53,151 nt of DNA. It comes from an uncultured Candidatus Saccharibacteria bacterium. Its GTDB lineage: Bacteria; Patescibacteriota; Minisyncoccia; Phycocordibacterales; PALSA-1337. This document shows positions 39,931-49,607 of the stretch, piece after piece. A program made the position numbers and the translations under genes. The notes under the pieces were generated by a model. That model did not search any database. It was given only the letters and a program-made list of their open reading frames with translations, and was not told where the DNA came from. The stretch covers positions 1-53,151 of the forward strand of contig CAZBVQ010000004.1 of assembly GCA_964495685.1 (NCBI GenBank). The letters are read 5' to 3'. Each line of letters begins with the position of its first letter. Position 1 is the stretch's first letter.

Positions 39931-41154
39931 ATGAAACCTTCTCACCCCATCACATACATTACCCGCGATATCGAACGAGCCATCGGCACGGAGCCTAGTG
40001 ATAATTACTTCATCATCGCCAATAAGACACCTTATGCAGAGGGCATCGCCGCCACTCATCCAGACAACGTCCTACTCATCGAAAGCCCTACCATTCTCGG
40101 TACCCGTGAGCTCATAGAACATGCCACCACCAAGGCGTGGCTTGCCTCGACCTTTGCCCCTTCAGCTTTACCCTTTACCCTTGTGTTCAAAAACACCGCT
40201 CGTGTCGAAGAAGCCGCTACCAAACACGGCCTCAAACTGATCAATCCCAGTGCTGCACTCTCAGAGACCATCGAGAACAAAATGTCTCAGATCGAGTGGC
40301 TCGGCGATATGGGCAAGAAATATTTGCCGCGCCATAGTGTCATGATCGCCAAGAAGCTCACCTGGACCGGCGAACCATTCATCGTGCAATGGGCACACGG
40401 ACACACCGGTGGCGGCACACTCCTTATTTCGAACGAGACAGAGCTCCGTACCATTCAAGAGAAATTCCCCTTCCGCATGACTCGTCGTAGTGCTTATATC
40501 AAGGGCCCCTCATTCACCGTGAATGCCGTGGTCGCCGCAGACAAAATCCTTGTCGGCAATATCAGTTACCAGATCACTGGCCTCCGACCGTTCACCGACA
40601 ACCCATTCAGCACTGTCGGTAATGACTGGAGTGCGACTCACACCATGTTGACCGAGTCGGAGATCGAATACATCGAGACTATGGCCAGTGACATCGGCAA
40701 GAAGCTCAATATCAGTGGATGGCGCGGACTCTATGGCATCGATGTGATCAAGGACGTCGAGCACAACACTATATATCTGATCGAGATCAATGCACGCCAA
40801 CCTGCATCGACCAGTTTCGAATCGTCACTACAGCGCCGCAACAGAGATCAGGGCGCCGACGGCATCACCACCTTCGAGGCACATCTCTCGGCCCTTCTCG
40901 GAGAAAGTATCAGTAAACCTCTCATTCCTATCAATGACGGTGCACAAATCGTCCAGCGTGTGACCAAAGCGACAACCACCGTTGGTGACGATAAGATCAC
41001 CGCACTTCATGCGGCCGGCTATCAAACAGCGACCTATCCCAACACTGACTTGAACGAAGATCTCGTGCGTATTCAGAGTACACGAGGTATTATTGATGCA
41101 CGTGGTGAGCTCAATGAGCGTGGGCAAGATATTCTGAGCAGCATCACTAGATAA
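39931..41154 (+). CDS. ATP-grasp fold ligase of unknown specificity
   Basis: IENK, PFIVQ...GHTGGGT and GLYGIDVI...LIEINARQPAS. Confidence 0.8.
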   Translation: MKPSHPITYITRDIERAIGTEPSDNYFIIANKTPYAEGIAATHPDNVLLIESPTILGTRELIEHATTKAWLASTFAPSALPFTLVFKNTARVEEAATKHGLKLINPSAALSETIENKMSQIEWLGDMGKKYLPRHSVMIAKKLTWTGEPFIVQWAHGHTGGGTLLISNETELRTIQEKFPFRMTRRSAYIKGPSFTVNAVVAADKILVGNISYQITGLRPFTDNPFSTVGNDWSATHTMLTESEIEYIETMASDIGKKLNISGWRGLYGIDVIKDVEHNTIYLIEINARQPASTSFESSLQRRNRDQGADGITTFEAHLSALLGESISKPLIPINDGAQIVQRVTKATTTVGDDKITALHAAGYQTATYPNTDLNEDLVRIQSTRGIIDARGELNERGQDILSSITR

Positions 41155-42367: not shown

Positions 42368-43144
42368 ATGAACACCAAAACTCTTTCCACCCGAGCACTT
42401 TCGGTCATAGATCAGTATCGCCAGTTCACTGTCGGGTCAGCGACGTGTTCGGTGCCCTATTTCAATAACAAGACCAAACGATCTCGCGGCGCTCTCCGTG
42501 TATATGTCGGCAAAGGTAGTCCAAAAGAGCTTTTTGAGGAAATCCAGTCCGTACTCGTCAAAGCCCACATAGATACATCTACCATCTCGAACGAAACGAT
42601 CAAAAAGTTACTCACTGATGAAAATATCGGCATCGATTGTTCGGGTTTTGCATACTATGTACTCAATAGCCAGAACGAAGAAATCGGCAAAGGTAAAATA
42701 GACAAACATCTTTCATTTATCAATTGTCATGGCCTAATCGGCAAAATGCGCTGCGCACTTCGACCCATCGAAAACTGTGACGTCGCCACGTTCGCACATG
42801 ATTCAAACAGTCGACTCGTCACTCTCAAAGACGTCACCCCTGGAGACATGATCACCATGTTGAACGACTCCCAAGAAAATGAACGTGACCACATTCTAGT
42901 CATCCACCAAGTCGAGTACCAGAATTTCATTCCCTACCAAATTCACTACTCTCACGCCGTCGCATACCCCGAGGATGGTATCTACGGCACCGGCATCAAA
43001 CAAGGCACCATAGAGATCCTCGACCTCAACAAACCGCTCACCGATCAGCTCTGGACCGAGAATGGCAAGACCGCCGAAGCAAACCGCATCTTCACGCGCG
43101 CCCAAAAATCAAAAACCGAAATCCGCCGTCTCAAGTGGTGGTAA
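42368..43144 (+). CDS. NlpC/P60-like (papain-fold) cysteine amidase
   Basis: GIDCSGF catalytic-Cys motif, PGD and DHILVI (His). Confidence 0.7.
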   Translation: MNTKTLSTRALSVIDQYRQFTVGSATCSVPYFNNKTKRSRGALRVYVGKGSPKELFEEIQSVLVKAHIDTSTISNETIKKLLTDENIGIDCSGFAYYVLNSQNEEIGKGKIDKHLSFINCHGLIGKMRCALRPIENCDVATFAHDSNSRLVTLKDVTPGDMITMLNDSQENERDHILVIHQVEYQNFIPYQIHYSHAVAYPEDGIYGTGIKQGTIEILDLNKPLTDQLWTENGKTAEANRIFTRAQKSKTEIRRLKWW

Positions 43145-43355: not shown

Positions 43356-44486
43356 ATGATAACTATCCTTGAGGGCACCGCCGATCTCTCATATATCATC
43401 TCATTCGCCCTGATTGGCGCTATTGGTGCATACCTATTGGCACCCCTCCTCATTCGTACCCTTTTCAAGCTCAATGTCATCAAAGGTGCAAAGACAGAGC
43501 TCGTCAACCTCGGCTCTCACGCCTACAAGGCCACTACTCCCGTCATGGGCGGACTCCTCGTCATCATCGTCGTCGCACTCGTCACCTATATATTCAACTG
43601 GAATCGCTCATTCACCTATGTCCCTATCGGTGTCATGATCATATCTGCCGCCCTCGGTGCCATCGACGACCTGCTCAATATTTATGGCTCAGAACGTCGC
43701 TCCCGCAAACTCGGTCACATCATGAATTTGATCCGTGTTCACAGCGACTGGAAGATGCGCCTGTGGTACATCATCACCTTGCCCTGGAGTGCCTTCAAGC
43801 GTCTCTCGGTCTGGTTCGGATCACGCACTAGTCGCGGCGTCTTCGTTCACGAGAAACTCATCCTCCAATTCATCGCCGGCGCCATCGCTGCCTGGTGGAT
43901 TTACACCAAGCTAGGACCTGCCTGGCACTTCATTTATTTCCCCTTCGTACCTGCTGGCCTCGATATAGGATGGATCATTATTCCGGTGATTATTTTCATG
44001 GTCATGTTCACCGCCAACGCCGTCAATATCGCCGACGGCATGGATGGTCTGGCTGGCGGCATGCTCACCATCACTTTCACTGCACTCACCATCCTCTCAT
44101 GGATCAACGGATTCGGTGAGATCGCCATCCTGAATGCTACGACCGCTGGCGCACTGGTCGCCTATACCTATTTCAATATCAAACCAGCTCGCTTCATGAT
44201 GGGCGATGTCGGCAGTCTCGGTCTCGGTGCCTTGCTAGCCGTGAATGCTATGGCTATCGGCGAACTCATTCCTCTTCTTTTCATCGGCTTCATGTTCTAC
44301 GTCGAAGCTCTTTCAGTCATCATCCAGGTCGTATCGCGATACACCCTCGGTCGCAAACTATTCCGCATGGCACCACTGCATCACCATTTCGAACTCAAGG
44401 GCTGGACCGAGGAGAAGACCGTGATGCGTTTCTGGGTCGTCCATTTCTTGTTCGTCATATTTGGATTCTGGCTAGCGTTGCACTAG
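43356..44486 (+). CDS. mraY: Phospho-N-acetylmuramoyl-pentapeptide transferase (MraY family) with loop insertion
   Basis: TPVMGG, GAIDD, ANAVNIADGMDGL, PARFMMGDVGS and FRMAPLHHHFELKGW. Confidence 0.88.
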   Translation: MITILEGTADLSYIISFALIGAIGAYLLAPLLIRTLFKLNVIKGAKTELVNLGSHAYKATTPVMGGLLVIIVVALVTYIFNWNRSFTYVPIGVMIISAALGAIDDLLNIYGSERRSRKLGHIMNLIRVHSDWKMRLWYIITLPWSAFKRLSVWFGSRTSRGVFVHEKLILQFIAGAIAAWWIYTKLGPAWHFIYFPFVPAGLDIGWIIIPVIIFMVMFTANAVNIADGMDGLAGGMLTITFTALTILSWINGFGEIAILNATTAGALVAYTYFNIKPARFMMGDVGSLGLGALLAVNAMAIGELIPLLFIGFMFYVEALSVIIQVVSRYTLGRKLFRMAPLHHHFELKGWTEEKTVMRFWVVHFLFVIFGFWLALH

Positions 44487-44490
44487 CATC

Positions 44491-45153
44491 ATGCCTTATC
44501 TTTCCTGGAACGAACAAACGATCACTGATTTCTCGGACAAGCACATCTCCGAAATGTATGGTCATGGCTACGTCTTCACCCGTATCGCCCGAGGGGTGAT
44601 GCACCAAACACGTTCCGTGCGCATTGACCTATCGAAGTTCGAGCTCACCAGCGAGAATCGTCGCATTCTCAAGAAGACCGATGAGCTGAGACTCATCGAC
44701 CGACCGACACCCCTTCCAGACTATGACTGGTCACTCGGCAAGCTGGCCAAGGATTTCTATGAGACCAAATTCGGTGCCGGCACCATGAGCGCGGCCAAGG
44801 TCAAAGAGATGCTCACCGATGCTACGGCCAGCAACTTCAATACACTTCTGCAATATACCAACGCCTCCGACAAAGCTGTCGGCTACGCGATCTGCCATTC
44901 AAATAAATATATGCTGCATTATTCATACCCATTCTACGACCTTGATGCAGCACCCAAAGACGCAGGCCTCGGCATGATGATTCGCGCCATTGTCTTTGCG
45001 CGAGAATCTGGCATGAAACATATCTACCTCGGTTCACTCCAACGTCCTTCTGACACCTACAAATTACAATTCCATGGCCTCGAATGGTTCGACGGGACAG
45101 CATGGTCACATGATCTCCAGAAGGTCCGTGAAATTCTCGCGACAACCAAATAA
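44491..45153 (+). CDS. Arginyl-tRNA--protein transferase (ATE/Bpt)-like aminoacyl-tRNA-dependent transferase
   Basis: RI.L..F......RRILKK (ATE_N-like) and Y.FYD....LG...I..AR..G.K.IYLG.....YK..F (ATE_C-like). Confidence 0.7.
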   Translation: MPYLSWNEQTITDFSDKHISEMYGHGYVFTRIARGVMHQTRSVRIDLSKFELTSENRRILKKTDELRLIDRPTPLPDYDWSLGKLAKDFYETKFGAGTMSAAKVKEMLTDATASNFNTLLQYTNASDKAVGYAICHSNKYMLHYSYPFYDLDAAPKDAGLGMMIRAIVFARESGMKHIYLGSLQRPSDTYKLQFHGLEWFDGTAWSHDLQKVREILATTK

Positions 45154-45201: not shown

Positions 45202-46596
45202 ATGAATCAATTACCCCGACACGTTCACGTCATCGGCATCTGTGGCGTTGCTACCAGCGCTCTAGCTATTGCTTTCCACAAGAAGGGCGTCAAAGTCACA
45301 GGGAGTGATAAAGGCTTTTATCCACCTGTTTCAACCTATCTCAAGAACGCAGGGATACCCTATTATGCCGGCTGGCATCCTGAGAACATTACTGCGGGTG
45401 AAAAACCTGATTTCATTATGATTGGTGGTGTTGGTACCAGCCCTTCAAACCCAGAGTATCTTTACGCTCACGAAAATAACATCCCTGTCTATCCATATGC
45501 CGAGGTGTTGGAAAAATATTTTATTAAAAAAAATTCAGTAGTTGTCGCGGGTACCTGGGGAAAAACAACAACTTCTTCCCTGCTTTCATTCATTATGATC
45601 CGAGCGGGACTGAATCCAAGCTACTTTACCGGCGGACTTTCGTTGTCACATGATACTGGCGCACTCACCGACACAGATTGGAGCATCGTCGAAGGAGATG
45701 AGTACCAAGTCTCTATCAGCGATCGTAGACCGAAGTTCGTGTACTACGCCCCGACCCACTTACTACTGACCTCAGTCTCATGGGACCACGCCGACCTGTA
45801 TCCTACGGAGAAAGCATACATCGATGAATTCACCAAGCTCGTACAACATATCCCCTCAAACGGACGTGTTGTAGCATGTATTGATGACGGTGGTGTGCAG
45901 CACGTTATACAGAATAGAGCAGTAATCAGTTACGGACAGTCTGCATCTGCCGACTACCGATATGGATCAGTCGCCACAACAAAAAATGGTCTCGACCTGA
46001 CTATTACTCACGCAGGCAAGACATTCAAAATACACTCACCGATGCTAGGCAGATTCAACGCGGAAAATATTGCAGGCGCTTTTGCCATGGCCTGCGAGAT
46101 TGGCGTCACACCAGAGATTACTACACAAGCGATCGCTGATTTCAAAGGAATAAGACGACGTTTTGAAAAAAGACTCGATGGTGAAAAAACGGTACTTGAT
46201 TGTCATGCACCAACAGCAGAAAAGGCAGCCTCAGTTCTGGAGGCCATTCGTGAGGTCTATCCAAAACGAGTTATTGCGGTGTATGAACCAAATATCGGTG
46301 GCCGTCAGCGCGCCTCGGCTCATGCCTATAACAATGCCTTCAAGGACGCAGATATAGTCATCATTCCTCACCTCACAAAAATCAAAGTGGCAGAAGATGC
46401 CTCTGAGCAACCTATGGAAGCTGATGAATTGGCAAAGACAATCGCTCGGACACACAAATATGTCCGTTCGATTGAAATCGACCAAAACGTAGTCGAATTC
46501 CTATCATCAGAGACCCGCCCAGGCGACGTGATCGTCTTCCTCGGATCCCATGGATTCAGGGGTATGATCGAAGAGGCAGTCAAATCACTATCCTAA
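45202..46596 (+). CDS. Mur ligase of the Mpl/MurC type
   Basis: IGICG...GSD...YPP (Mpl-like N-terminus), AGTWGKTTT, EGDEY, WDHAD and FKGIRRRFE. Confidence 0.85.
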   Translation: MNQLPRHVHVIGICGVATSALAIAFHKKGVKVTGSDKGFYPPVSTYLKNAGIPYYAGWHPENITAGEKPDFIMIGGVGTSPSNPEYLYAHENNIPVYPYAEVLEKYFIKKNSVVVAGTWGKTTTSSLLSFIMIRAGLNPSYFTGGLSLSHDTGALTDTDWSIVEGDEYQVSISDRRPKFVYYAPTHLLLTSVSWDHADLYPTEKAYIDEFTKLVQHIPSNGRVVACIDDGGVQHVIQNRAVISYGQSASADYRYGSVATTKNGLDLTITHAGKTFKIHSPMLGRFNAENIAGAFAMACEIGVTPEITTQAIADFKGIRRRFEKRLDGEKTVLDCHAPTAEKAASVLEAIREVYPKRVIAVYEPNIGGRQRASAHAYNNAFKDADIVIIPHLTKIKVAEDASEQPMEADELAKTIARTHKYVRSIEIDQNVVEFLSSETRPGDVIVFLGSHGFRGMIEEAVKSLS

Positions 46597-46599
46597 CCT

Positions 46600-46773
46600 C
46601 TACTTGCCCTCGTCAACGATCTCAGTAGAGACCTTGCCATCAGCGGCAATATTCTTGACCGCGAGAGTCATACCGCAGTGATTACATTCGATGACCATAC
46701 CTGCTGCCAGATTGGGATATCGAGAGAGGTCGATGGTATTTTTGCATTCTGGACACATACAAAGCATATTCAT
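46600..46773 (-). CDS. LysW-like zinc-ribbon small carrier protein (57 aa)
   Basis: CPEC...CNHC and a C-terminal EIVDEGK. Start re-called at MNMLCMC, 9 nt after CATAAT. Confidence 0.7.
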   Translation of the reverse strand: MNMLCMCPECKNTIDLSRYPNLAAGMVIECNHCGMTLAVKNIAADGKVSTEIVDEGK

Positions 46774-46874: not shown

Positions 46875-47750
46875 ATGACAACTCCCCTCGAACACTACCC
46901 TGAATTGGCGTCAGCTATTGGTGTAGCCGACCTCTATTTCAAGCGCGAAGATCTGCACCCTTACGGGTCTCACAAGGGCCGCTCCATTCCGGTCATGATA
47001 GATACCTACTACGACACAGGCGACCGAGAATTCGCCATCTCTTCGTCAGGTAATGCGGCATTGGCGGCGGCAATACACGTACAGAGCAAACCTGACTGCA
47101 ACCTCAATATATTCGTAGGTAACCACGTCTCCCCCACCAAGCTCGAACGTATCGAGAAGGTCGCTGCGACCGCCAATGGCCGAATCCGCATCCTCACCAA
47201 AGAACGCCCCCTCCAGGCACTTACCCAAGCGATAAGTGAGGGCAAACGAAGTCTCCGCCAGTCGACAGATGACGTCGCTCTCGTCGGCTATCAGTCATTG
47301 GCCGAAGAATTGGCCACAGCAGCACAATCAGACAAAATAGCCGCCCTATTCATCGGCACATCTTCAGGAACAACAGCCCAAGCCCTAGCGAGCTATTTTT
47401 TGAACAAAAAAATCCCTATTCAAGTGCACATAGTCCAGACGTCCTCATGCCATCCACTTGCCCAAGAATTCAATCCGTATGATGGCCCTGATGAACGTTC
47501 CCGCGCTGACGCTATTGTCGATATCTCTGCCCAACGGAAGTCGACACTCATCCCACTCATCGAGAAAACAGGTGGTTCCGGTTGGATTGCCACCAACGAA
47601 GATATTGATGCCGCCCGAGAACTGGTACGCGAACACACTCGATTAGATATTTCGACCAATAGCGCACTTTCGATAGTCGGCGCCATGAAATCGACCTACA
47701 TCGATTATGAAATTGATGGCGCAGTCGTCTGTATGATTTGTGGAGAGTAG
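46875..47750 (+). CDS. PLP-dependent fold-type II enzyme (threonine synthase/cysteine synthase-like)
   Basis: YFKREDLHPYGSHKGR (PLP Lys), SSSGNAA and GTSSGTT phosphate loop. Confidence 0.85.
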   Translation: MTTPLEHYPELASAIGVADLYFKREDLHPYGSHKGRSIPVMIDTYYDTGDREFAISSSGNAALAAAIHVQSKPDCNLNIFVGNHVSPTKLERIEKVAATANGRIRILTKERPLQALTQAISEGKRSLRQSTDDVALVGYQSLAEELATAAQSDKIAALFIGTSSGTTAQALASYFLNKKIPIQVHIVQTSSCHPLAQEFNPYDGPDERSRADAIVDISAQRKSTLIPLIEKTGGSGWIATNEDIDAARELVREHTRLDISTNSALSIVGAMKSTYIDYEIDGAVVCMICGE

Positions 47751-47914: not shown

Positions 47915-49276
47915 CTACAACCCCCTCACTGCCCGCACGAACTTGTCTCCACGTTCCCACTTGGAACCCTCGATACCGCCCGCATCGAATCCTGGACTGA
48001 ACAAGACACGATCGCCTTTTTGGGCACACTCGGAGGCTGTCCGCACCGCTTCTTCAATAGATGGAACTGTCCGGACATCCACCTGCTCGATAGTGTGCAA
48101 CAACGTGCGTTGGCGCATGGTACCACTACCAGGAATAGTGATAATCGTGTGCACATATTGTGGCAACTGACTATACAGTGCCTGATATTCATACCCCCCA
48201 TCGACACCACCGAAAATCAAGATCATATTCCTGCCCTGCGACAACGCCTCCACACCGGCACGTGCGGACTCGGGCGTCATGGAAGCCGTGTCATTATAAT
48301 ATTCAACGCCCTTGACCTTCTTGACCAATTCGAGACGACCCTTGAGCGCCTTCCAATCGACGAGCACATGTCGCGCCATATCCTCATCCACTTTGAACAA
48401 GGAAGCTGCCTGAAGTGCGAGGGCCGCATTGAGTCGATCATGGATACCTCGCCCTTCGAAACCCCATTCATCTGGTACACGCATCGCCTTGGTACGGAAC
48501 ATCTTGGCACGCTGTTGGATCGGCGCCTGGCGCACCGCATCGATAATCTCGTCAGTAGCAATAAGGAAATTGTTGTATGTCTGATAGGCCAATACCTGGA
48601 AGGGTGATTCCATGAGTCCACGTACTGTCGGCATATTCGTGAATATGGCAACATGCGGACTAATCCTCATGGCGTAGAGATCGGGAATAAGTTCATCGAC
48701 AATACGCATAAGCACAATATCACCACTGGTGATCTTCTTGAGACGGACGAGTGTACCATCAGCTGATTCCGGGTCAATCACATGCACATTCTGCGCCTCA
48801 TAGGTATGACAGGCCTTCTCAAGCATCGGAGCAAGAATAGACATGACCGTTGATTTGCCGCACACACCCATGACGCCGATGAGCGTCACCGGTGGAGCCA
48901 GCTTGAAAAAGAGCGTCTCTGGGTATTCGACAGATATAGGCTTCCGAGCCATATCCAATCGTCCTTGTTCCTGTTGTGTGTTGTGCGCATATATATCTCT
49001 CAAGAAGGAAGAATCTCGTGGATACTCTCGTGAGAGGATAATCAGATCCATATCGAGCAAATCTTCAGCTGGAATAGACCCGCAAATATAATTGGCGAGG
49101 CCGATCGATCGCAAGAATACGAGATGATGTTTGAGGCGGGCCTCACTTTTTAGGTCATATATAGAGACCCAGGCACCTGCCTTGATGAGATATTTGACAT
49201 CTTCGACCATCTCACCATGCGGGCCCAGGCCGATAACGGCCACTCGTTTGCCCTTGAAATAGTCGCGCAATGCCAT
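47915..49276 (-). CDS. murD: MurD-like Mur ligase, divergent
   Basis: Start re-called at MALRDYFKGKRVAVIGLG (49276). P-loop GVCGKST, GRLE, YYNDT, LIFGG and GDRVLFSPG. Confidence 0.7.
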   Translation of the reverse strand: MALRDYFKGKRVAVIGLGPHGEMVEDVKYLIKAGAWVSIYDLKSEARLKHHLVFLRSIGLANYICGSIPAEDLLDMDLIILSREYPRDSSFLRDIYAHNTQQEQGRLDMARKPISVEYPETLFFKLAPPVTLIGVMGVCGKSTVMSILAPMLEKACHTYEAQNVHVIDPESADGTLVRLKKITSGDIVLMRIVDELIPDLYAMRISPHVAIFTNMPTVRGLMESPFQVLAYQTYNNFLIATDEIIDAVRQAPIQQRAKMFRTKAMRVPDEWGFEGRGIHDRLNAALALQAASLFKVDEDMARHVLVDWKALKGRLELVKKVKGVEYYNDTASMTPESARAGVEALSQGRNMILIFGGVDGGYEYQALYSQLPQYVHTIITIPGSGTMRQRTLLHTIEQVDVRTVPSIEEAVRTASECAQKGDRVLFSPGFDAGGIEGSKWERGDKFVRAVRGL

Positions 49277-49301
49277 GATACGGGGTAGTGTACAGCGAAA
49301 T

Positions 49302-49607
49302 TTACACCCTCGCAATGAGCTGTTTCACTTTGATTAATTCCTGAAGCAATGCCTGAATCTTGACCCCCTCATGAGTATCCGAGCCACCGGAGGCAACAAA
49401 TGAAGTAAGCTTCTTCATGAAGACAGTATATATGTCATTCTGATACTGTTCGAGGACTTTGCGTTCAGTGGCATCGGTCACAGGGGTACCGAAACGACGA
49501 TCCATGACGCGCATCAAGGTCTCGGAACGATGTATCCCTTCATACATGATCGAATCATGTCGAATAATCCCGTCAAGGGATGGTGATACGAACTGATAAT
49601 CTCTCAT
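49302..49607 (-). CDS. Hypothetical protein (101 aa)
   Basis: Starts 5 nt after the radC stop and fills the gap to murD; helical composition. Confidence 0.55.
   Translation of the reverse strand: MRDYQFVSPSLDGIIRHDSIMYEGIHRSETLMRVMDRRFGTPVTDATERKVLEQYQNDIYTVFMKKLTSFVASGGSDTHEGVKIQALLQELIKVKQLIARV

Follow-up and report, generated by a model that had tools for sequence, protein, structure and literature searches.

Why does a relative of the enzymes that mark protein N-termini for degradation lie in a cluster of peptidoglycan genes? The question is raised by a 220-aa open reading frame (ORF) at 44491-45153 of the forward strand in contig CAZBVQ010000004.1 of an uncultured Candidatus Saccharibacteria bacterium, whose positions 1 to 53,151 we analyzed and refer to as the window. 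The ORF encodes a compact homolog of ATE/Bpt aminoacyl-tRNA transferases (here called the ATE-like protein) and is placed between mraY and a gene for a MurC/Mpl-like ligase (here MurC-like). Its fold, phylogenetic distribution, fusions and partner genes lead us to propose that it is very probably a tRNA-dependent transferase that works together with the MurC-like ligase in peptidoglycan precursor synthesis. For the more specific proposal that the pair would bypass MurD, by forming the bond between residues 1 and 2 of the stem peptide and then attaching the dipeptide to UDP-N-acetylmuramic acid (UDP-MurNAc), we consider the chances evenly balanced.

The ORF begins with ATG, separated by a 4-nt spacer (CATC) from the TAG stop codon of mraY that ends at 44486, i.e. 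five nucleotides after that stop, exactly as reported in the first-pass annotation; the MurC-like gene starts 48 nt past the stop codon of the ATE-like ORF. It is a real gene, with 1835 homologs of near-equal length, a confident AlphaFold (AF2) model (predicted local distance difference test score, pLDDT, 97.4; predicted template modeling score, pTM, 0.93) and a single copy in the 0.83-Mb host genome, which is 98% complete. Pfam ATE_C (PF04377) matches residues 102-199 with 28 bits against a cut-off of 25. ATE_N has no Pfam match in the protein or in 10 distant relatives tested, which have ATE_C only, and PF02388 (FemAB) has none in the protein; this was the profile comparison that the first-pass annotation had proposed. 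The NCBIfam "arginyltransferase" models of the Bpt type reach at best 52.2 bits against cut-offs of at least 170, with only residues 40-205 aligned. The alignment of 64 diverse homologs (A1), which was also the input for the AF2 model, reveals a single and non-conserved Cys (C136), so that the earlier assignment to the ATE/Bpt superfamily without the Cys cluster holds.

The model was compared with known structures by Foldseek and by a Foldseek-independent structure aligner, both of which put aminoacyl-tRNA transferases first. The top match is human ATE1 (Z 17.0, rmsd (root-mean-square deviation) 3.2, 214 of 220 residues aligned), on which the N-terminal 40 residues also superpose despite the missing ATE_N match. 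Further matches include the soluble C-terminal domain of MprF, the aminoacyl-phosphatidylglycerol synthase (Z 15.7, 174 residues aligned), K. lactis Ate1 (Z 14.1), FemX (Z 12.5-12.6, covering one GNAT lobe and a portion of the second) and the tRNA-dependent peptide synthases Sba18/Sbb17 (PDB 9wqy/9wqx, Z 11.7); ordinary acetyltransferases have Z of 10 or less and match one lobe only. The fold match to MprF, in which the soluble transferase domain is joined to a membrane flippase domain and acts on a lipid, is strong, but no Pfam match to it is listed and the ATE-like protein has no membrane domain. Sba18/Sbb17 are likewise small soluble GNAT-fold proteins that use aminoacyl-tRNA to form a peptide bond on a small-molecule amine, but their lineage is Fem-like, their role lies in secondary metabolism and they have no link to a Mur ligase.

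Eight residues are invariant among the 64 sequences: G26, R44, R58, G159, Y179, G181, Y190 and K191. Profile alignment to yeast ATE1 places Y190-K191 on the catalytic Y303-K304, and the L-G and Y-L-G motifs likewise coincide with those of ATE1. A sequence search of the PDB gave marginal ATE1 matches (E ~1), used for local motif alignment only. In K. lactis Ate1 K304 is essential, as is the equivalent K305 of FemX, and a basic helix contacts the acceptor arm of the tRNA (PMC9351520). The segment S-E-N-R-R-I-L-K-K (residues 54-62), which contains the invariant R58, matches this helix. The Ate1 residues that read Arg (S255/S273/E277/Y289; PMC9351520) align with Y144/M162/A166/I178, all of them uncharged, and Arg is therefore an unlikely donor; a small or hydrophobic residue is plausible. 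Compared with ATE1/Bpt (ATE_N + ATE_C, COG2935), the ATE-like protein shares the whole fold, the GNAT core, the catalytic Tyr-Lys pair and the basic helix, and presumably also an aminoacyl-tRNA donor and an alpha-amine acceptor; it differs in being less than half the size of ATE1, in lacking ATE_N and the Zn/Fe-S Cys motif, and in having an uncharged donor pocket. Read from its sequence and model, it is best explained as a reduced form of the superfamily's enzymes that has kept the use of charged tRNA as aminoacyl donor.

The ATE-like family is confined to Patescibacteria. Those of the 1835 homologs that carry source names come from metagenome-assembled genomes of Parcubacteria, Paceibacteria or Taylorbacteria, and named records of the family include Magasanikbacteria, Taylorbacteria, Parcubacteria, Dojkabacteria and Adlerbacteria; among 1.84 billion cluster representatives, 301 clusters match at E<=1e-3. 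Within the phylum the distribution is patchy: according to GTDB species genomes, the gene is present in 23 of the 24 genomes of the host genus and in one of the 16 other families of the host order, and a phylum-wide sample contains it in 19 of 401 genomes (~5%). The phylum tallies, those of FemAB and glutamate racemase below among them, include one unpublished ATE-negative genome (G154), whose removal shifts each count by one and which is outside the MurD comparison.

The most constant companion of the ATE-like gene is the MurC-like gene, present in 58 of 58 loci with enough downstream sequence. Fewer than 45 nt separate the two genes in about half of the loci, and in 20 of 55 the start of the MurC-like gene, as extrapolated, touches or overlaps the stop of the ATE-like gene. 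The two are also found as single polypeptides, with the ATE-like part N-terminal and the MurC-like part C-terminal, in nine protein clusters (658-747 aa), in the closed genome G308 (688 aa) and in loci L076 and L097, i.e. at least 12 in total. In two genomes, G056 (100% complete) and G432 (98%), the adjacent pair is retained alone: homologs of the NlpC/P60, ATP-grasp and PLP (pyridoxal phosphate) enzymes that accompany it elsewhere were not detected there, and there is no carrier-like ORF near the pair. Because of these genomes we regard the ATE-like/MurC-like pair as the minimal unit and the carrier cassette as an add-on. The first-pass annotation described the gene as coupled to mraY; adjacency to mraY is indeed common (55 of 58 loci with enough upstream sequence), but the tightest partner, by fusion and by the isolated pairs, is the MurC-like gene. 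Homologs unlinked to mur genes, which it had named as evidence against a wall-related role, are not what these loci contain.

Genomes with the ATE-like gene also differ in their Mur ligase inventory. Canonical MurD, defined as a TIGR01087 match at E<=1e-40, is found in none of the 19 ATE-bearing genomes (8 families) and in 73 of 92 ATE-negative Patescibacteria. The best TIGR01087 matches in ATE-bearing genomes are cross-matches to other Mur ligases, and the MurD-like_N domain scores above its cut-off in none of them, passing only in controls. Genes with Mur_ligase_M number three in 15 of the 19 ATE-bearing genomes and four to six in 10 of 12 controls, namely the MurD-bearing ones. Glutamate racemase is present in one of the 19, compared to 166 of 382 other genomes. 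One candidate explanation, that the ATP-grasp enzyme replaces MurD, is ruled out as a general answer by G056 and G432, which lack both.

The partner ligase itself diverges from MurC. In a quick IQ-TREE phylogeny, 36 ATE-linked MurC-like ligases, together with those of two genomes discussed below (G337 and G257), fall on one side of a branch with 99% support, and 20 canonical MurCs, drawn from MurD-bearing genomes, fall on the other. The motifs DDYAHHP and PH-x-[YF]-[STQ]-R are present in all 20 canonical MurCs and in none of the 38 ligases of the partner clade, which instead have DD[IL]AHSP combined with EPN[TI]G[NG]R, or else RDLAHSP, or [DG]FGSSY and an aromatic insertion ahead of the Arg. 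In H. influenzae MurC the L-Ala is bound by Y346, H348, H376, R377 and R380 (PMC3060825), which sit within the DDYAHHP and PHxYSR motifs. Judging from these replacements, the L-Ala pocket of the partner ligase is rebuilt. Mpl has its own version of the motifs (FAHH, EPRSNT), attaches a pre-made peptide to UDP-MurNAc, and ligates L-Ala-D-Glu weakly and slowly (PMC3060825). The partner shares the three-domain architecture of MurC and Mpl, but it scores below the cut-offs of both families and its typical motifs (DDIAHSP/EPNTGNR) match neither those of MurC (DDYAHHP, PHxYxR) nor those of Mpl. We know of no Mpl paired with a tRNA-dependent peptide synthase. In the window ligase (residues 332-338 and 362-367) the sequence LDCHAPT stands where the 25 closest relatives have DD[IL]AHSP. 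A compensated frameshift of DDIAHSP was considered and ruled out, since the other frames do not give the motif back, and LDCHAPT is, as far as the reading frames tell, a real local divergence.

In the window, the pair is surrounded by the following genes, given by coordinates and strand together with the basis of the assignment:

39931..41154, +: ATP-grasp ligase of the cassette (ATP-grasp_3, 36 bits; synteny)
42368..43144, +: NlpC/P60-like cysteine peptidase or amidase of the cassette (weak NlpC_P60 match, 17.5 bits; synteny)
43356..44486, +: MraY, directly upstream of the ATE-like gene (TIGR00445, 190 bits)
44491..45153, +: ATE/Bpt-superfamily aminoacyl-tRNA transferase, compact Cys-less form, 220 aa (ORF, Pfam ATE_C, AF2 model, human ATE1 fold match, invariant Y190-K191)
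45202..46596, +: MurC/Mpl-like UDP-MurNAc ligase, the conserved and sometimes fused partner (three Mur ligase domains; murC 264 bits against a cut-off of 335, mpl 207 against 389)
46600..46773, -: LysW-like small zinc-ribbon carrier, Lys-ended, associated with the ATE-like gene but not obligatory (carrier_LysW_Arch, 24 bits, below cut-off)
46875..47750, +: fold-type II PLP enzyme of the cassette (PALP, 110 bits; synteny)
47915..49315, -: divergent MurD-like ligase, typical of the order (TIGR01087, 110 bits against a cut-off of 212; MurD-like_N and Mur_ligase_C domains)

Across 62 species loci the order is ATP-grasp, NlpC/P60, mraY, ATE-like and MurC-like, followed by the LysW-like gene on the opposite strand and the PLP enzyme. 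A distant branch of the family (25-32% identity) has the same components in another order: ATE-like, MurC-like, NlpC/P60, mraY, PLP enzyme and ATP-grasp. Lys-ended LysW-like ORFs occur in three of five loci of this branch, and Lys-ended homologs are found in the close loci too. Family f73 of the distant branch possesses a MurC-like::NlpC/P60 protein encoded by a single ORF (L047:7386-9473, - strand, 695 aa; L046:3880-5973, + strand, 697 aa), and in both loci the ATE-like gene stops 3-6 nt upstream of it; this is a second "Rosetta stone" fusion within the same gene set.

The host genome contains MurE, MurF, Ddl, Alr, MraY, one MurC-like and one divergent MurD-like ligase; glutamate racemase and FemAB were not found in it. 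Full-length homologs of the MurD-like protein (30-34% identity) are present in 13 of 19 ATE-negative genomes of the host order and in none of the other 18 ATE-bearing genomes. The host genus is thus an exception to the rule that MurD is absent where the ATE-like gene is present. In the tree its MurC-like ligase does not join those of the host order but clusters with distant families (f36/f109 genomes and Magasanikbacteria-named loci), and its MurD-like ligase is order-typical; this suggests that the host genus acquired the cassette laterally and retained its resident MurD.

In order to reconcile these observations, we propose that residue 1 (small and neutral, e.g. L-Ala) would be delivered as an aminoacyl-tRNA, and that the ATE-like enzyme would move it onto the alpha-amino group of a glutamate-type residue 2, which could be in free form or, where the cassette is present, attached to the Lys-ended carrier. 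The MurC/Mpl-like ligase, with an enlarged pocket, would then join the dipeptide to UDP-MurNAc, so that the pair would do the work of MurC and MurD. An aminoacyl-tRNA provides an activated carboxyl, which means that the acceptor must be an amine. Because the pentapeptide stem takes four ligations after Ddl, genomes with three ligases and an ATE-like protein would need the latter for one bond; the bond between residues 1 and 2 is the only main-chain bond possible before a MurC-type ligation, and we assign the ATE-like enzyme there. Transfer to the alpha-amine of an acidic residue would also preserve the ancestral chemistry of the ATE family. In cassette-bearing genomes we speculate that the ATP-grasp enzyme might tether glutamate to the carrier, the PLP enzyme invert it, and the NlpC/P60 protein release the dipeptide, which agrees with the MurC-like::NlpC fusions and with how seldom glutamate racemase occurs. 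To the proposal in its full extent we give slightly less than an even chance: that in ~5% of the sampled Patescibacteria an ATE-type transferase would make the bond between residues 1 and 2 and a MurC/Mpl-derived ligase would attach the dipeptide, replacing MurD, and that the LysW-like/ATP-grasp/PLP/NlpC-P60 module, which may supply a D-residue without glutamate racemase, would feed the acceptor in most lineages.

The cytoplasmic route through MurC, D, E and F is regarded as common to all wall-bearing bacteria, and its enzymes form a set of drug targets; to our knowledge, tRNA-dependent enzymes take part in it only in side branches (Fem, MurM). If the proposal is true, a tRNA-dependent enzyme of an N-degron family that substitutes for MurD would represent a new way to build the stem peptide and a second case in which wall synthesis independently recruited aminoacyl-tRNA, and it would help to explain how ultra-small symbionts make peptidoglycan without glutamate racemase and without MurD. 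Two recombinant proteins, or a single natural fusion protein, would be enough for a direct test of the bypass. Literature searches on the ATE-like family, on arginyltransferases of the CPR (candidate phyla radiation) and on LysW in Patescibacteria returned nothing relevant; the anticorrelation with MurD, the rebuilt ligase pocket, the co-occurrence with FemAB, the minimal pair and the MurC-like::NlpC fusions are added here.

Several observations weigh against the bypass. The association between the ATE-like gene and the absence of MurD has a Fisher p of 3e-11, which is not corrected for phylogeny and overstates the independence of related genomes. Two complete genomes, G337 (L120) and G257 (L121), have a ligase of the special MurC-like clade and lack both MurD and the ATE-like gene, so the ATE-like enzyme is not the sole way to live without MurD. 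No hidden copy was found in them: there is no Pfam ATE_C match at E<=1 and no match to the hidden Markov model of A1, and the ORFs of 215 and 221 aa that neighbor MurC-like have an hhalign probability below 1%. These bacteria may scavenge peptide instead. In the host genus, the divergent MurD-like ligase is kept beside the cassette, and the bypass may here be redundant, partial or unused. A source of D-Glu was not identified in G056. At the acceptor site, the G-x-R-R-S-G motif of ATE/Bpt, including R80 that binds the acidic substrate, is tentatively placed at positions 26-31. The positions after the invariant G26 (27-31) read [FY]-[LV]-[PF]-x-[RS] in the 64 sequences, so that R80 of K. lactis Ate1 would correspond to the hydrophobic positions 28-29 and a Glu-type acceptor appears to be without support from pocket conservation. 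Finally, a fusion alone is no proof of consecutive steps, because fusions of non-consecutive enzymes of the Mur pathway are known, such as MurC-Ddl in Chlamydia.

The first-pass annotation inclined to a Fem-like role. As a branching enzyme of this kind, the ATE-like protein would move an amino acid from tRNA onto the side-chain amine of residue 3 in a UDP-MurNAc-peptide, lipid I or lipid II, to form a cross-bridge. FemX/FemABX and MurM/N (PF02388) do resemble the ATE-like protein in their aminoacyl-tRNA-dependent GNAT fold, in acting in precursor synthesis and in the catalytic Lys (K305 in FemX), and the start of the gene 4 nt past the mraY stop and the missing FemAB of the host genome fit as well. 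The host MurE has DEDPY rather than DNPR of the diaminopimelate type, which we take to suggest Lys or Orn at position 3. The fold class and the mur linkage thus speak for this part of the earlier view, but its function does not follow: FemAB is present in 365 of 401 Patescibacteria and in 18 of 19 ATE-bearing genomes, which rules out a simple replacement of Fem, and it is absent from ATE-negative genomes of the host order too; none of the 7 genomes sampled from that order has it. Fem proteins have two GNAT lobes and 330-420 aa, compared to 220 aa here, and add side-chain branches after MurF, whereas the ATE-like gene goes along with the first ligase and with a missing MurD. Branching would leave unexplained the MurD anticorrelation, the choice of the first ligase over MurE, MurF or MraY as fusion partner, and the rebuilt L-Ala pocket, and we consider it unlikely. 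Degradation tagging in the manner of Bpt, with Leu or Arg transferred to N-terminal Asp or Glu, has in its favor the ATE_C and Bpt-type matches and the label "arginyltransferase" that the JGI (Joint Genome Institute) gives to homologs. The score far below the equivalog cut-offs, the lack of ATE_N and of the Cys motif in the ATE-like protein and in 10 distant members, the restriction to ~5% of Patescibacteria, and the invariable mur context, with Mur ligase fusions in several lineages in place of N-degron genes, make it highly improbable.

The two remaining alternatives keep the gene set and change the chemistry. With the order of steps reversed, the MurC-like ligase would first couple UDP-MurNAc with the aminoacyl-tRNA, at the amino group of the latter, and the ATE-like enzyme would move the UDP-MurNAc-aminoacyl group onto the amine of residue 2. 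The fusion would then channel a tRNA-bound intermediate, and both the loss of the carboxylate-binding His/Arg from the ligase pocket and the missing MurD would be accounted for; on the other hand, nothing in the donor pocket, which is bulky and uncharged (Y144, M162), points to space for a nucleotide sugar, and we know of no aminoacyl-tRNA transferase of this fold that uses an N-acylated donor, so that we hold this order to be improbable. Equally small is the probability that the sole acceptor would be the Lys-ended LysW-like protein, through the epsilon-amine of its C-terminal Lys or through a bound intermediate, in a pathway apart from MurC chemistry. The ATP-grasp, NlpC/P60, LysW-like and PLP genes do accompany the ATE-like gene in close and distant branches, but the fusions join it to the MurC-like ligase and not to cassette proteins, and G056 and G432 keep the pair without the accompanying genes or a carrier-like ORF nearby; the LysW-like protein, which the first-pass annotation had listed among the acceptors, is consequently not an obligatory one. 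The MurD bypass by the ATE-like/MurC-like pair remains the reading that we prefer.

Some loci exhibit additional features. About one third of them have 0.4-3.9 kb of extra DNA between the ATE-like and MurC-like genes (e.g. L073, L081, L092 and L100), and in the window hairpin-rich elements flank the cluster. In G432 (L048:7623-10647) the MurC-like and ATE-like genes are followed by a gene of the Cu-oxidase_4/YfiH family, to which the peptidoglycan editing factor PgeF belongs; PgeF acts on MurC products that were made wrongly. In the distant branch, a short Mur ligase gene is located just upstream of the ATE-like gene, in open frames of 341-396 aa of which only the first 115 Mur_ligase_M positions match; it is perhaps a putative MurE-like ligase:

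G039:C3:2363-2731, G064:C5:39526-39897 and G152:C54:511-867: short Mur ligases of the distant branch (Mur_ligase_M match)

Unusual architectures are also found among the homologs of the ATE-like protein. A distant homolog that has only ATE_C (P0250, 809 aa) is fused to PPDK_N and PEP-utilising mobile domains, i.e. to partners outside the Mur pathway. Two close homologs (P0279, 422 aa, and P0282, 404 aa) have C-terminal extensions of ~190-200 aa with several hydrophobic segments, and may be either membrane-anchored forms or read-through gene calls.

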